IMG/VR virus record: IMGVR_UViG_3300037455_000099
Coordinates: 1,383 to 65,382 of that record
Reading direction: 5' to 3' (one strand)
Source of the DNA: a virus
Lineage: Duplodnaviria; Caudoviricetes
DNA length: 64,000 bases
Shown here piece after piece: positions 35,955 through 59,714 of the stretch. The first letter of the stretch is position 1. Each line of letters opens with the position of its first letter. The notes under the pieces are model-generated. The model was given only the letters and a program-made list of their open reading frames with translations, was not told the origin of the DNA and did no database searches. A program made the translations under genes and the position numbers.

Positions 35955-35980
35955 CGCGTGTATTTCACATACTATAATGG
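35955..35980 (+). promoter_or_regulatory. phage promoter motif P1
   Basis: CGCGTGTATTTCACATACTATAATGG. Confidence 0.8.
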
Positions 35981-36128
35981 GTACAGGCCATGAGACATGG
36001 TGTGTTAACGAAGGCCCTGACGACACAAAAGTGTCTATCGTAGTGAAGCTACGGATAATGCACGACCTGCTGCGAAATGGTCATGAGGGATCGAGAGTCA
36101 GCGATAATTTCAAAGACTCTTGATTTTT
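35979..36128 (+). ncRNA. candidate structured ncRNA 1 with terminator
   Basis: Lies between P1 and a terminator hairpin (36091-36123 + T5); four hairpins; no SD-led ORF. Confidence 0.5.
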
Positions 36129-36154
36129 CGCGAGAAAATCACACCCTATTATGA
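36129..36154 (+). promoter_or_regulatory. phage promoter motif P2
   Basis: CGCGAGAAAATCACACCCTATTATGA. Confidence 0.8.
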
Positions 36155-36222
36155 GAAGGTAAGTTTGATGGCAAAACACCGGGGTGACCCGGAGAGCACA
36201 GGTCCGAGTCCTGTACTTTCTC
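36153..36222 (+). ncRNA. tRNA-like RNA lacking an anticodon (GTGA tetraloop)
   Basis: Cloverleaf: GAGAAGGT/ACTTTCTC acceptor, GTTT-GATGGCA-AAAC D-arm, CCGGG-GTGA-CCCGG, ACAGG-TCCGAGT-CCTGT T-arm; no CCA. Confidence 0.75.
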
Positions 36223-36232
36223 TTTTATTTTT

Positions 36233-36258
36233 CGCATAATTTTCATGTTGTATAATGG
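36233..36258 (+). promoter_or_regulatory. phage promoter motif P3
   Basis: CGCATAATTTTCATGTTGTATAATGG. Confidence 0.8.
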
Positions 36259-36312
36259 AGTAGTAAAGTGCTGCTCCCTAGAAACTTTTATATTTCATGG
36301 AGGTACATTATT

Positions 36313-36729
36313 ATGGGTATTTTTGGTAAAAGAATTGTTAAGAAAGACGGAAGCGAAACAAACGTTAAGGCTTCAACAAGAGCTGAGATTCTCGACGAGA
36401 TCGGAGCAGAACTTGAAGAAACTGGTAACGAGATTATTGTAGACCTTACAAATGGTATCGCGATGGATGGAGGCTTCGACATGGACAATGTCAAGTACAT
36501 CCCTTACATCAAGAAATACATGATTAAGATCAGCAACCTCGTTAACATGTTCGGAAAGTCTATGAAGATTGAGATCGAGCACACTGAAGCGCTTGAGAAG
36601 GAAATCAGCAAGATGAACGAGAACTTCGCATCTATGAACAACTATCTTAGCAGAATAGCTTTAGCACTGGAAAAACAGAACATAGAAAACAATTGTACTT
36701 TAGTTGATAAAACTAAGAAAGAAAAGTAA
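36313..36729 (+). CDS. early hypothetical protein (P3 cassette)
   Basis: SD GGAGGT; followed by a hairpin. Confidence 0.7.
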   Translation: MGIFGKRIVKKDGSETNVKASTRAEILDEIGAELEETGNEIIVDLTNGIAMDGGFDMDNVKYIPYIKKYMIKISNLVNMFGKSMKIEIEHTEALEKEISKMNENFASMNNYLSRIALALEKQNIENNCTLVDKTKKEK

Positions 36730-36753
36730 TTCAAGCAAAAACTTAAAGGCGAT

Positions 36754-36794
36754 AAGGGCTTCTGAGCAGAAATGTTCGGAGGCTCTTAGCTTTT
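36754..36794 (+). terminator. intrinsic terminator-like hairpin (GAGC-AGAAAT-GTTC core)
   Basis: AAGGGCTTCTGAGC/GTTCGGAGGCTCTT followed by T tract. Confidence 0.7.
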
Positions 36795-36820
36795 CGTTTA
36801 TATTTCAAACACTATAGTGG
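36795..36820 (+). promoter_or_regulatory. phage promoter motif P4
   Basis: CGTTTATATTTCAAACACTATAGTGG. Confidence 0.8.
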
Positions 36821-36834
36821 AAGGAGGTGAAATC

Positions 36835-37083
36835 ATGACAAAGAAGGAAGTAATGGCAATGATTCAGGAACTTGATAATAACTATTGTTCTGAGATTGAG
36901 TTATTACATTCTAATCAAAAAGGTTTAATGCAAATTTGTGAAACGCAAATGATAATCATTAAACAGCAAAGGGAAAGAATGGATAACCTACAAGAGCAGT
37001 TCAATAAGTTATTAGAAGTTGATAAAGCAACCAATGCTAGAATTGATATTCTTGAAGACATGATTAAAAAAATCACCGAATGA
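36835..37083 (+). CDS. coiled-coil small protein (P4 cassette)
   Basis: SD AAGGAGGTG. Confidence 0.7.
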   Translation: MTKKEVMAMIQELDNNYCSEIELLHSNQKGLMQICETQMIIIKQQRERMDNLQEQFNKLLEVDKATNARIDILEDMIKKITE

Positions 37084-37136
37084 AATTGTGAAACAGTACA
37101 TTAGCTAAATAGTTCATGTGCTGTTTCATGTTTATT

Positions 37137-37162
37137 CGCGGTAGATTCAGATCCTTTAATGG
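37137..37162 (+). promoter_or_regulatory. phage promoter motif P5
   Basis: CGCGGTAGATTCAGATCCTTTAATGG. Confidence 0.8.
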
Positions 37163-37201
37163 AAGATATTAACCCTTATATTTTATTAAGGAGGAACTAT
37201 T

Positions 37202-37462
37202 ATGAAAGAATTATATAACAAACTTAACAAAGAAGTAGATAAGGAAATAGCATTATCAATATTAATAGCTATACCAGCATTCATATTTATGTTTGGTTAT
37301 GGTCTTATTGGCGAGTATTTTAAAGCCAAATCAGAACTTGACATGGCAGTAATGTTTAGCTGGGGTGGCATATTATTAGCAATGATGTGGTTACTATTAT
37401 CAGCTATACTTTATGTGGGTGTTGAATTTATTCATGCATTAGCAGACAAAATCTTTGATTAA
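37202..37462 (+). CDS. small 2-TM membrane protein (P5 cassette)
   Basis: SD AAGGAGG; hydrophobic. Confidence 0.7.
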   Translation: MKELYNKLNKEVDKEIALSILIAIPAFIFMFGYGLIGEYFKAKSELDMAVMFSWGGILLAMMWLLLSAILYVGVEFIHALADKIFD

Positions 37463-37514
37463 AAACTAGAGTTAATACTCAGACCAGAGCTCATTCGTGG
37501 GCTCTTGGCTTTTT

Positions 37515-37540
37515 CGCATTATATTCTTATACTATAGTGG
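37515..37540 (+). promoter_or_regulatory. phage promoter motif P6
   Basis: CGCATTATATTCTTATACTATAGTGG. Confidence 0.8.
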
Positions 37541-37555
37541 AAAGGAGGAATCAGT

Positions 37556-37762
37556 ATGAAAGTATTTATGACTATATACTTCATTATTGGATGTCTATAT
37601 TCTATATTTGTTTTAATAGTAGGAATAGCTGCATTCGAGGACGCACCTGACTATGGAAAGCATGTTGCGAAGATCATAATATGCATGTTATTAGAACTTA
37701 TAATATGGCCTATAGAATTTATAGTAATGATAGTAAGTATAATTAAAAAACATATGCACTAA
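37556..37762 (+). CDS. small 2-TM membrane protein (P6 cassette)
   Basis: SD AAAGGAGG; hydrophobic. Confidence 0.7.
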   Translation: MKVFMTIYFIIGCLYSIFVLIVGIAAFEDAPDYGKHVAKIIICMLLELIIWPIEFIVMIVSIIKKHMH

Positions 37763-58317: not shown

Positions 58318-58355
58318 AAACTAGGCCCCTTGATATTCAGGGGCTTTTAGTTTTT

Positions 58356-58381
58356 CGTTCAAGAATCATATTCTATTATGG
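58356..58381 (+). promoter_or_regulatory. phage promoter motif P18
   Basis: CGTTCAAGAATCATATTCTATTATGG. Confidence 0.78.
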
Positions 58382-58395
58382 AAGGAGGGATTCTA

Positions 58396-58461
58396 ATGAT
58401 TGATATACTATTAATAATACTTAGTGTTGGTATTGGATATTTATTAGTCAAGAAAGGATGA
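58396..58461 (+). CDS. 21-aa single-TM peptide (P18 cassette)
   Basis: MIDILLIILSVGIGYLLVKKG; SD AAGGAGG. Confidence 0.6.
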   Translation: MIDILLIILSVGIGYLLVKKG

Positions 58462-58499
58462 TCCTAAACTAAAGCTCGCAATCGTGGGCTTTAGTATTT

Positions 58500-58525
58500 C
58501 GCGTAAAATTCACTCCCTTTAATGG
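58500..58525 (+). promoter_or_regulatory. phage promoter motif P19
   Basis: CGCGTAAAATTCACTCCCTTTAATGG. Confidence 0.8.
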
Positions 58526-58554
58526 AAGATAAGTAACTACAACCTTTAAGGAGG

Positions 58555-58773
58555 ATGTTTATTATGAAAAAAGTTATGACTAATATATTTGCAGTAGTAT
58601 TTGCAGTTATGATGATGTTATCTGTAGTATTCATTAGTGCTGGATTTATTGATGCATGTAGCAACAATTGGATCGGCATAATTGAATTCTTTGGAGGCAT
58701 AGCATTATGCGCAGTATTATTCAAAGGATTAGATGGAATGATGGCTTTCATCGATAAGAAATTTGACAAATAA
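58555..58773 (+). CDS. small 2-TM protein (P19 cassette)
   Basis: SD AAGGAGG. Confidence 0.7.
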   Translation: MFIMKKVMTNIFAVVFAVMMMLSVVFISAGFIDACSNNWIGIIEFFGGIALCAVLFKGLDGMMAFIDKKFDK

Positions 58774-58862
58774 GGACAATAGAAACTTATTCAATCTTAA
58801 GGACTCAAATTCAGAGTCTTTGAGATTTTTATCCCCCTTTTTATTTGTTATAGGAGGTTATT

Positions 58863-59045
58863 ATGGAACAAATTAATATTATGTTATTATTTACAGAGAA
58901 ACATCCAGAGTTATTAAAATATATTTCTCACTACGAAATGTTAGACAATAGTGAAGCAATAGAGATACATTACAAGAATGGTGCAATAGAAGTGTGGAGT
59001 TATTATGATGATATGTTTGTAACTGTGAGAGATAGATTATTGTAG
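58863..59045 (+). CDS. small hypothetical protein
   Basis: SD AGGAGGT. Confidence 0.6.
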   Translation: MEQINIMLLFTEKHPELLKYISHYEMLDNSEAIEIHYKNGAIEVWSYYDDMFVTVRDRLL

Positions 59046-59047
59046 TT

Positions 59048-59073
59048 CGCGTGTAATTCATATCCTTTAATGG
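59048..59073 (+). promoter_or_regulatory. phage promoter motif P20
   Basis: CGCGTGTAATTCATATCCTTTAATGG. Confidence 0.8.
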
Positions 59074-59097
59074 AAGATATTAAAAGGAGGAATTATT

Positions 59098-59244
59098 ATG
59101 ATGAATAAAATAAAAACTTTAAGAAATAAATATGTAGAAGAAGAAAACGTAAAGATGTTTTGGATCTGTGATATGATCGCACACATCCCTACAGTTCTAG
59201 CTTTAGCAATTTGTGCAATTATAGTTATTATCGCTATTATCTAA
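59098..59244 (+). CDS. 48-aa peptide with C-terminal TM helix (P20 cassette)
   Basis: MMNKIKTLRNKY...VLALAICAIIVIIAII; SD AAGGAGG. Confidence 0.65.
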   Translation: MMNKIKTLRNKYVEEENVKMFWICDMIAHIPTVLALAICAIIVIIAII

Positions 59245-59334
59245 AATTTTGATATATTTATAATCTTCCAAAACCATTAGGGTTTGAGCCCCCACTCAGA
59301 TCCTTTTGGTTTTTTATTGATTGAGGAACGAAAC

Positions 59335-59360
59335 CGTGTGATATTCTTATTGTGTTATGG
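59335..59360 (+). promoter_or_regulatory. phage promoter motif P21
   Basis: CGTGTGATATTCTTATTGTGTTATGG. Confidence 0.72.
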
Positions 59361-59372
59361 AGGTGAATAGAA

Positions 59373-59540
59373 ATGATTGATTGGTTCTTTGATGAACTCC
59401 CTTATTGGATATTTGAAATAGAGTATTTCATTTGGAAGATGACACTGTATTTCATTAAGTATTTATTAGAAGGAATGTTAGCAATATGGGATGCTTCGAA
59501 AGAATTAATAATTTATATTCGCAACAAAAGTAAAAAATGA
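59373..59540 (+). CDS. 55-aa aromatic/hydrophobic peptide (P21 cassette)
   Basis: MIDWFFDELPYWIFEIEYFIWK...; SD GGAGGTG. Confidence 0.6.
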   Translation: MIDWFFDELPYWIFEIEYFIWKMTLYFIKYLLEGMLAIWDASKELIIYIRNKSKK

Positions 59541-59688
59541 ATTTGTTTAGCAACATGAGATTAATTTCTTGTGTTGTTAAACTTTTCAAATACTTTTAAT
59601 TTTTTATTTTATTTATAACTTTATATTAAAATTAATTTTAAAAAAGAATTTAGAAATTAAAAGTTTTATTTTTCTTCTAAAAATAATT

Positions 59689-59714
59689 CGCGTGAAAATC
59701 ATGCCCTTTTATGA
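59689..59714 (+). promoter_or_regulatory. phage promoter motif P22
   Basis: CGCGTGAAAATCATGCCCTTTTATGA. Confidence 0.78.

Follow-up and report, generated by a model that had tools for sequence, protein, structure and literature searches.

The subject of this analysis is a 64,000-nucleotide stretch of a tailed phage, IMG/VR record IMGVR_UViG_3300037455_000099 (the window; bases 1383-65382 of a 65,382-bp record that is rated complete), and a short motif present in 22 copies in its early/replication half. These copies are probably the promoters of a single-chain two-barrel RNA polymerase (RNAP) encoded by the same phage (open reading frame, ORF, 60694-63627). Our literature search found no description of the promoter of this family, of which the enzyme alone had been predicted earlier.

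The motif set and its anatomy

The initial annotation had reported 22 exactly spaced copies of the pattern CGY-N8-C-N6-TDTWRT-GR, confined to the early/replication half. The pattern was found at all 22 positions, with the G exactly 24 nt past the first C (hereafter G24; motif positions are counted from this C). A pattern search of the whole genome returned 22 forward and 0 reverse matches, and the reversed-pattern control returned 0 and 1. A 34-column position weight matrix (PWM) was then built from the 22 copies and used to scan both strands of the 65,382-bp genome. The copies scored 24.7-43.5 bits, and all of them scored at least 13.8 in a leave-one-out scan, whereas the next best sites of the genome reached 1.7 bits on the + strand and 9.4 bits on the - strand. 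This gap indicates that the set is complete, bimodal and strand-specific. All copies are on the + strand within 35955-59714, and the PWM detected no further copy, either in 1-35.9 kb or among the 1,382 genome bases outside the window. Position check, pattern search and PWM therefore agree on both the exact spacing and the confinement that had been read from the sequence. The fuller consensus, TT-CGY-N8-CA-N4-C-TNTWAT-GR, adds conserved positions that had not been noticed before (T-2, T-1, T10, A12, Y15 and C17). Copies are intergenic (0-10 nt past stop codons) or overlap the final codons of the ORF before them, and about 8 of the 22 lie directly behind strong hairpin plus T-run elements. They are listed below, all on the + strand, with PWM scores in bits (SD, Shine-Dalgarno sequence).

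P1, 35955-35980, +, PWM 28.1; followed by a non-coding hairpin-rich unit; no SD-led ORF was found downstream
P2, 36129-36154, +, PWM 35.4; heads a tRNA-like RNA; hairpin and T-run directly upstream
P3, 36233-36258, +, PWM 34.5
P4, 36795-36820, +, PWM 32.5; directly behind terminator 36753-36788; SD 2 nt past G24
P5, 37137-37162, +, PWM 38.1; promoter and leader are near-duplicates of those of P13
P6, 37515-37540, +, PWM 36.5; behind terminator 37486-37505
P7, 37803-37828, +; SD GGAGGTG from G24
P8, 38075-38100, +, PWM 34.3
P9, 38533-38558, +; SD from G24; ATG at 38570
P10, 39944-39969, +, PWM 30.3
P11, 40979-41004, +, weakest copy, PWM 24.7 (leave-one-out 13.8); heads an 8-kb block ending with the DNA primase/polymerase gene
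P12, 49151-49176, +, PWM 36.7; 3 nt past the stop of the DNA primase/polymerase gene
P13, 49967-49992, +, PWM 38.0; RNA contig 50005-50256 downstream
P14, 53675-53700, +, PWM 37.1; RNA contigs 53717/53718-54094/54102 downstream; hairpin 54136-54163
P15, 56180-56205, +; GAGGAGGTG from G24
P16, 57071-57096, +; GAGGAGGTG from G24
P17, 58074-58099, +; SD from G24; RNA contig 58108-58314 downstream; hairpin 58323-58346
P18, 58356-58381, +; directly behind terminator 58323-58346
P19, 58500-58525, +, PWM 41.9; RNA contig 58536-58801 downstream
P20, 59048-59073, +, top-scoring copy, PWM 43.5; spanned by a low-depth RNA contig, 58968-59118
P21, 59335-59360, +; SD from G24
P22, 59689-59714, +, PWM 38.7; heads the endonuclease-exonuclease-RNAP operon; most conserved subclass in the family

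The box at positions 18-23 resembles TATAAT, and the copies were examined for the remaining features of a sigmaA promoter. In none of the 22 was a TTGACA-like hexamer present 16-18 bp upstream of the box, in agreement with the earlier reading, nor was a TG extension; motif positions -6 to -1 likewise showed no TTGACA-like consensus. T was invariant at positions 18, 20 and 23 in the window, and A was present at position 19, the equivalent of the -11 A, in 13 of the 22 copies. Among 225 distinct copies of the family, position 19 was A in 35%, T in 46% and G in 16%, T20, A22 and T23 were each conserved in at least 96%, and position 24 was always a purine (G 84%, A 16%). Thus, of the conserved -11 A and -7 T of sigmaA promoters, the T (T23) is kept and position 19 is variable. 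Instead of a start 5-9 nt past the -10 element, the SD cores and the 5' strands of putative tRNA-like RNAs begin 0-3 nt past the hexamer. The motif is not a sigmaA promoter. Sigma70-type sites were not enriched in any part of the genome either (found against shuffle-expected: 59/59.9, 60/52, 40/46.6 and 52/59.6). The hexamer reads CTTTAT in Faecalibacterium phage FP_oengus, TGTTAT or TCTTAT in relatives and TTTTAT in the copies that head RNAP operons; going beyond the initial annotation, the likeness to TATAAT is largely incidental.

The position of the start can be bounded from the elements that follow the box. SD cores lie 0-3 nt past G24 in 9 of the 22 window copies (at G24 itself in 7), start codons 11-17 nt past it, and the same 0-3 nt distance was found in 55 of 208 distinct copies of relatives. 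As had been noted, the SD GGAGGTG begins at G24 in P7, P9, P17 and P21, GAGGAGGTG does so in P15 and P16, and the acceptor strand of a tRNA-like RNA does so in P2:

36153-36222, +, tRNA-like cloverleaf of 70 nt with a 4-nt anticodon loop (minimum free energy -25.4 kcal/mol, z -2.4); acceptor strand from G24 of P2

This RNA was visible by folding only, ARAGORN and Rfam having called nothing in the window. Its counterpart in FP_oengus was called 'tRNA-???' by ARAGORN (2935-3006, with a 2-nt 'anticodon') and begins 1 nt past G24, that is at G25, of the copy at 2910. The presence of a tRNA-shaped RNA at the predicted starts of both phages looks like a conserved tRNA mimic. A start 6-7 nt past the box would delete the SDs and the acceptor strands, so that the start must lie at or before position 24/25, and the invariant purine at position 24 points to G24 as the predicted +1. 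Conservation continues through the first 12 transcribed bases (GAGACCCCTAC) in the phages of Gordonia and Streptomyces, which indicates that a promoter or 5'-leader element reaches downstream of +1 in those phages.

RNA evidence was obtained from assembled contigs of one bovine-gut metatranscriptome sample (two runs), whose matches were 100% identical to the window:

50005-50256, one contig, begins 14 nt past G24 of P13; its end adjoins hairpin 50258-50287
53717/53718-54094/54102, contigs that begin 18-19 nt past G24 of P14 and end 34-42 nt before hairpin 54136-54163
58108-58314, one contig, begins 10 nt past G24 of P17 and ends before hairpin 58323-58346
58536-58801, one contig, begins 12 nt past G24 of P19; no hairpin was noted at its end

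All multi-hundred-nt contigs of the region (4/4) started 10-19 nt past a copy of the motif, a location that about 1% of positions would offer by chance. One further contig, of 151 nt (58968-59118), spans P20, before which there is no terminator. The contigs support units made of a promoter followed by a terminator, without fixing +1; differences in contig depth between units were not taken as evidence of expression. Their identity to the window (49000-64000) indicates that this phage or a near-identical strain was active in the ruminant gut community.

The polymerase and its co-occurrence with the motif

P22 heads an operon at the right end of the genome, followed by a small ORF:

59761-60177, +, endonuclease gene (VRR-Nuc type in relatives; phrog_93), in synteny in FP_oengus, Avazak, Sporto and RavenPuff
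60105-60668, +, Cas4/RecB-like exonuclease gene (phrog_3953, E 3e-64; PDDEXK)
60694-63627, +, 977-amino acid single-chain two-barrel RNAP with N- and C-terminal helix-turn-helix (HTH) domains (phrog_4291, full length, E 0)
63624-63944, +, small ORF behind the RNAP gene (phrog_4303, E 2e-25), found behind the RNAP gene in all annotated relatives of both phyla

The 977-amino acid protein carries the motifs VRYPH and GADFDGD (the latter at residue 540), and LSGADFDGDT was invariant in 24 homologues from both phyla. The phage therefore encodes a two-barrel RNAP with an intact catalytic DxDGD. HTH matches, including sigma70 region 4 models, were located at residues 100-130 and 940-975, and the match to PF05183 was sub-threshold. 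No match was obtained with phmmer against PDB sequences. An AlphaFold2 model (predicted local distance difference test, pLDDT, 78.3) was used for a Foldseek search, in which the modelled fold resembled QDE-1 (E 1e-7), the phage gp64 RNAP 8f72 (E 1.5e-4) and plant RDR2. In the other phages with the motif the polymerase is also HTH-fused and has 900-1050 amino acids. Inspection by eye showed an N-terminal HTH that is nearly invariant and a C-terminal HTH that varies by clade; covariation between the HTH recognition helix and the promoter variants, also inspected by eye, was confounded by phylogeny and was not counted as evidence. The small phrog_4303 ORF is a candidate cofactor.

The same family (an actinophage supercluster, 1706 and FP_oengus) was predicted to be an RNA polymerase by HHpred (Koert et al., 10.1101/842583). 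The protein described there belongs to the same PHROG 4291, with the DxDGD and an HTH at both ends; that work deals with the enzyme only, and the word 'promoter' is absent from its text (10.1101/842583). The present result also improves the annotation of this gene, for which the labels 'HTH DNA-binding protein', 'RNA-dependent RNA polymerase' and 'structural protein' are in wide use.

Relatives of the polymerase were collected by tblastn (523 in IMG/VR and 250 among cultured or deposited phages), and 80 IMG/VR loci, each with at most 10 kb of flanking sequence, were scanned with the family PWM. A total of 237 forward and 4 reverse matches were obtained, and 235 lay upstream of the RNAP gene (646 kb), 2 inside it and 0 downstream (378 kb). 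In all 77 loci with enough flank (77/77) a copy was found 920-1675 nt before the RNAP gene, heading the endonuclease-exonuclease-polymerase operon as P22 does here. Alignment of P22 with the three closest orthologous regions revealed an invariant block, TCGCGT..A..TCAT.CCCTTTTATGAG, amid diverged flanks.

Among named phages, copies with the same spacing and core were found in FP_oengus (13-15 copies), Gordonia phage Avazak (9) and Arthrobacter phage Sporto (10). Lactococcus phage 1706 has 12 copies of a CAC variant, TTYCACAnGTTTTACATAnACTATAGTAGA, and the 6 copies of Streptomyces phage RavenPuff form AT-rich islands against a genome of 61% GC. All these phages have their copies on the coding strand, in the interval from the lysis genes to the polymerase gene, and they share one gene order (primase/polymerase, helicase, VRR-Nuc endonuclease, Cas4 exonuclease, RNAP and the small ORF at the right end). 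Motif and enzyme thus occur together, oriented with transcription, in phages of six host genera and two phyla. The control, 50 kb around yonO of SPbeta, contained no site of at least 14 bits on either strand. MT835495, the nearest GenBank relative by DNA, has two good copies, both just before the RNAP operon; this record was set aside as an unverified scaffold in which the early region is probably missing or misplaced.

The proposed mechanism and its alternatives

The initial annotation had proposed that transcription starts at G24 and is carried out by the phage RNAP. The non-sigmaA anatomy, the bound on the start, the RNA contigs and the co-occurrence with the polymerase all support this proposal; the exact +1 and the identity of the enzyme are what we infer from them. 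The promoter would be compact (~28 bp). Its upstream, duplex-recognition part would consist of TT-CGCG at -26 to -21 and WCA (A/T-CA) at -14 to -12, two elements about one helical turn apart that are candidate targets of the two sigma-region-4-like HTH domains. The T/A-rich box TNTWAT at -6 to -1 would probably melt, and initiation would take place at the purine directly after it (G24 as R+1, then R25 as R+2). P1-P21 would drive short units (micro-ORFs, small RNAs and replication genes), of which many are delimited by hairpin/T-run terminators, and P22 would drive the endonuclease, the exonuclease and the polymerase itself.

The structural half raises a separate point, which the initial annotation did not contain, namely that it lacks a promoter of any recognisable kind. 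No second (late) promoter class was detected, as 1-36 kb and the genome ends showed no motif copy and no enrichment of sigma70 sites or terminators; a single sigma70-like site (10 of 12), at genome bases 2-29, does not exceed chance expectation. A strong terminator was not found in the structural half. At the right genome end, 56 nt of non-coding DNA and one small ORF separate the polymerase gene from the terminus, and many independent contigs and cos-ended actinophage genomes end at the same place. Once the cohesive ends are joined, transcripts from P22 would probably run into the 36-kb structural/lysis block, like the single long late operon of YonO.

Several observations weigh against transcription of the 22 units by the phage enzyme. 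The box of the actinophages matches TATAAT perfectly and could be used by host sigmaA too, and the hairpin/T-run terminators that end the units are typical of host RNAP. The carriers are all evolutionarily related, so that the co-occurrence could partly reflect shared descent of a module that includes another factor. The contigs, from one sample, give neither exact ends, strand nor 5' chemistry, and they could in principle contain DNA. YonO, the two-barrel polymerase of SPbeta and the one characterised relative of the enzyme class in Bacillus, transcribes late rather than early genes, from a single start whose promoter sequence is undefined (PMC5467207), and in the yonO-yonK interval the best PWM score was -9.4, with no similar motif (the exact start could not be placed on the phage record); the YonO promoter is either not of this class or lies outside the mappable region. 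Only P22 precedes the polymerase gene, whose expression would call for delivery of the enzyme with the virion or for some host transcription. Finally, FP_oengus is temperate (it has an integrase) and must be inducible from the prophage without a virion enzyme, so that in this phage at least a host-driven route of some kind must exist.

The location of the polymerase gene itself behind P22, also beyond the initial annotation, thus creates a bootstrapping problem. Since all promoters, including that of the polymerase gene, are of one class, we prefer the explanation that the first polymerase molecules arrive with the virion, although we regard such delivery as about as likely as not. The lack of sigma70-type enrichment throughout the genome also speaks for it. 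The homologue in phage 1706, ORF75 (46485-49574), is annotated 'structural protein' (GenBank annotation alone). Two small replication-module proteins of 1706, orf62 and orf71, bear the same label, and the three labels together suggest packaging of non-morphogenetic proteins. Residues 1-49 of the polymerase are disordered in the model, yet they contain an invariant HYG-x2-(R/H)-SGRYPWGSG preceded by acidic residues. This N-terminus resembles the DUF7211 N-termini (HHG-x-KGM-x-WG; DYIAHHGxKGMxWG) of four proteins beside the terminase and lysis genes, and it could be a capsid-targeting or cleavage tag. Coordinates for the tag and the DUF7211 proteins are 60694-60840, 1663-2172, 2523-3305 and 34821-35663 in the window and 1003-2169 in L095; gene 5 of Streptomyces phage RavenPuff also has the DUF7211 motif.

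Three other explanations were considered, and the serious rival among them is that the host core RNAP is redirected to the motif by a phage factor (a sigma-like protein or activator, or the 977-amino acid protein recruiting through its HTH domains), the phage polymerase transcribing, for example, the late genes. The restriction of YonO to late genes, the location of the RNAP gene directly upstream of the structural block, the classical hairpin/T-run ends of the units, the need of prophage relatives for host-driven expression and the likeness of the box to a -10 element, perfect in actinophages, are all in its favour. We nevertheless consider it unlikely. The conserved genes of the module, as listed by Koert et al. 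(10.1101/842583), do not include a sigma factor gene, and between the RNAP and the structural genes neither the window nor 378 kb of relatives contained a second promoter class or a motif copy. Moreover, a -10 element at positions 18-23 would place the start ~6 nt into or beyond the SDs and tRNA-like 5' strands, conservation is lacking at the -11 equivalent, and a single factor would need to suit the RNAPs of two phyla.

Far less probable is that the motif is no promoter, being either an oriented protein-binding site for a stoperator-like repressor or a site at which an endoribonuclease cuts polycistronic RNA before each cistron. RNA contigs beginning past the motif would fit cleavage as well, as would the one that spans P20, and the stoperators of Cluster A mycobacteriophages are also oriented, intergenic and present in many copies. 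Against both versions, transcription must be initiated anew at the roughly 8 copies that lie directly behind strong terminators, conservation falls into two blocks at fixed spacing over 28 bp with no conserved RNA fold, and the purines at 24-26 fit initiation. No repressor or integrase was found among the phage ORFs searched (some small ORFs were left out), and stoperator sites were rejected; all sizeable ORFs are on the + strand. Hardly any credence can be given to the idea of ordinary host sigmaA '-10 only' promoters with a phage-specific UP-like or regulator-binding addition upstream, which draws on the TATAAT-like hexamer of the window (13/22 A at 19; T18, T20 and T23 invariant) and is opposed by the missing -35 and TG extension, by CTTTAT, TGTTAT or TTTTAT in relatives, by a start bound (SD and tRNA-like positions) incompatible with a 5-9 nt discriminator and by an upstream half that is identical in Firmicutes and Actinobacteria phages.

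Recognition of the motif by the phage polymerase is thus the reading that we retain. In its widest form, which we advance tentatively and hold slightly less probable than its failure, a ~100-kDa polypeptide (a two-barrel core with its own HTH readers) would recognise the 28-bp duplex promoter, melt TNTWAT and begin transcription 1 nt further on; packaging would be through the HYG..SGRYPWGSG tag, and the enzyme would transcribe the whole genome, short early units and one 40-kb late operon, without host RNAP, and the cassette would work unchanged in Actinobacteria and Firmicutes. If true, this unchanged cassette of enzyme and promoter would explain how the phage lineage crossed phyla.

Known systems and minor observations

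The polymerase-specific promoter sets of phages T7, N4, phiKZ/AR9 and P23-45 are already known (PMC10770324). A close parallel is Thermus phage P23-45, whose single-chain two-barrel RNAPs likewise have their own conserved motifs upstream of the starts; relatives without the enzyme lack the motif (Chaban et al. 2024, PMC10770324). The structure 8f72, of the gp64 type, is the one matched by the window enzyme with Foldseek (E 1.5e-4). The P23-45 motifs (AT-rich for the virion RNAP gp96 and GC-rich for the non-virion RNAP gp64) differ from the one described here; unlike the window enzyme, the P23-45 enzymes have no fused HTH, and the virion enzyme is fused to the tape measure protein (PMC10770324). 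P23-45 promoters were mapped by ONT-cappable-seq and ChIP-seq (PMC10770324), whereas the proposed ones of the window are supported by comparison and RNA contigs.

YonO of the Bacillus prophage SPbeta, a Firmicutes siphovirus, likewise belongs to the single-chain two-barrel DNA-dependent RNAPs with a DxDGD motif (Forrest et al. 2017, PMC5467207), and its gene is likewise located just upstream of a long late operon. It is distant in sequence from the window enzyme (no phmmer match), and it serves late genes, whereas the motif marks the early/replication half. Which promoter YonO-like polymerases recognise, and whether they need any factor, was stated as an open question (Forrest et al. 2017, PMC5467207). 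The present family, which counts at least 250 cultured phages and more than 500 viral contigs, now has a concrete ~28-bp consensus with a predicted +1, and the hosts of its cultured members (Arthrobacter, Gordonia, Streptomyces and Lactococcus) are easy to grow, which makes the promoter question directly testable. If self-sufficient, the enzyme would recognise promoters by itself and represent a minimal, sigma-free relative of cellular RNAP, which would bear on the evolution of transcription and might provide an orthogonal expression tool.

Promoters of the T7 type share with the motif their compact size (~23-28 bp), many co-oriented copies, a duplex-binding part, a TATA-like melting part and a G start; in this comparison the 1706 variant reads CACTATAGTAGA. 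The T7 polymerase has a Pol-I-like fold, in contrast to the two-barrel fold here, and its gene is transcribed by host RNAP. A T7-like promoter was rejected, the only polymerase-like gene of the phage being the two-barrel one. N4 and crAss-like phages package their enzyme, inject it and transcribe their early genes without relying on host RNAP; N4 uses hairpin promoters, and the enzymes of both groups are much larger. Unlike in those phages, packaging here is suggested by the 1706 ORF75 annotation and the N-terminal tag. The gp66 protein of the crAss-like phage phi14:2 is mentioned as an RdRP/YonO-like virion RNAP (Drobysheva et al. 2021, as cited in PMC10770324).

Some further observations concern individual units. 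P5 and P13 (37137-37200 and 49967-50030) also have in common a ~35-nt leader, GGAAGATAKTAACCCTTATATTYTATTAAGGAGGAA, which makes them a duplicated promoter-leader cassette. Downstream of P22 (59713-59760) there is a 7-codon mini-ORF, ATG TCC ACT TAT CGA CTA AAT TAG, and a AAATTAGTTTAG stretch lies between P22 and the endonuclease gene; both are kept in the closest relatives. The helicase block 50325-53600 (within 50258-53600) is behind a strong terminator and has no motif copy, so that its expression must use read-through or an unrecognised signal; a degenerate TTTTATGGAGG without the upstream half is present near it, at ~50300. Three paralogous DUF6353 membrane-type proteins are encoded in the early region (39089-39949, 40185-40949 and 42590-43507), and FP_oengus also has three.

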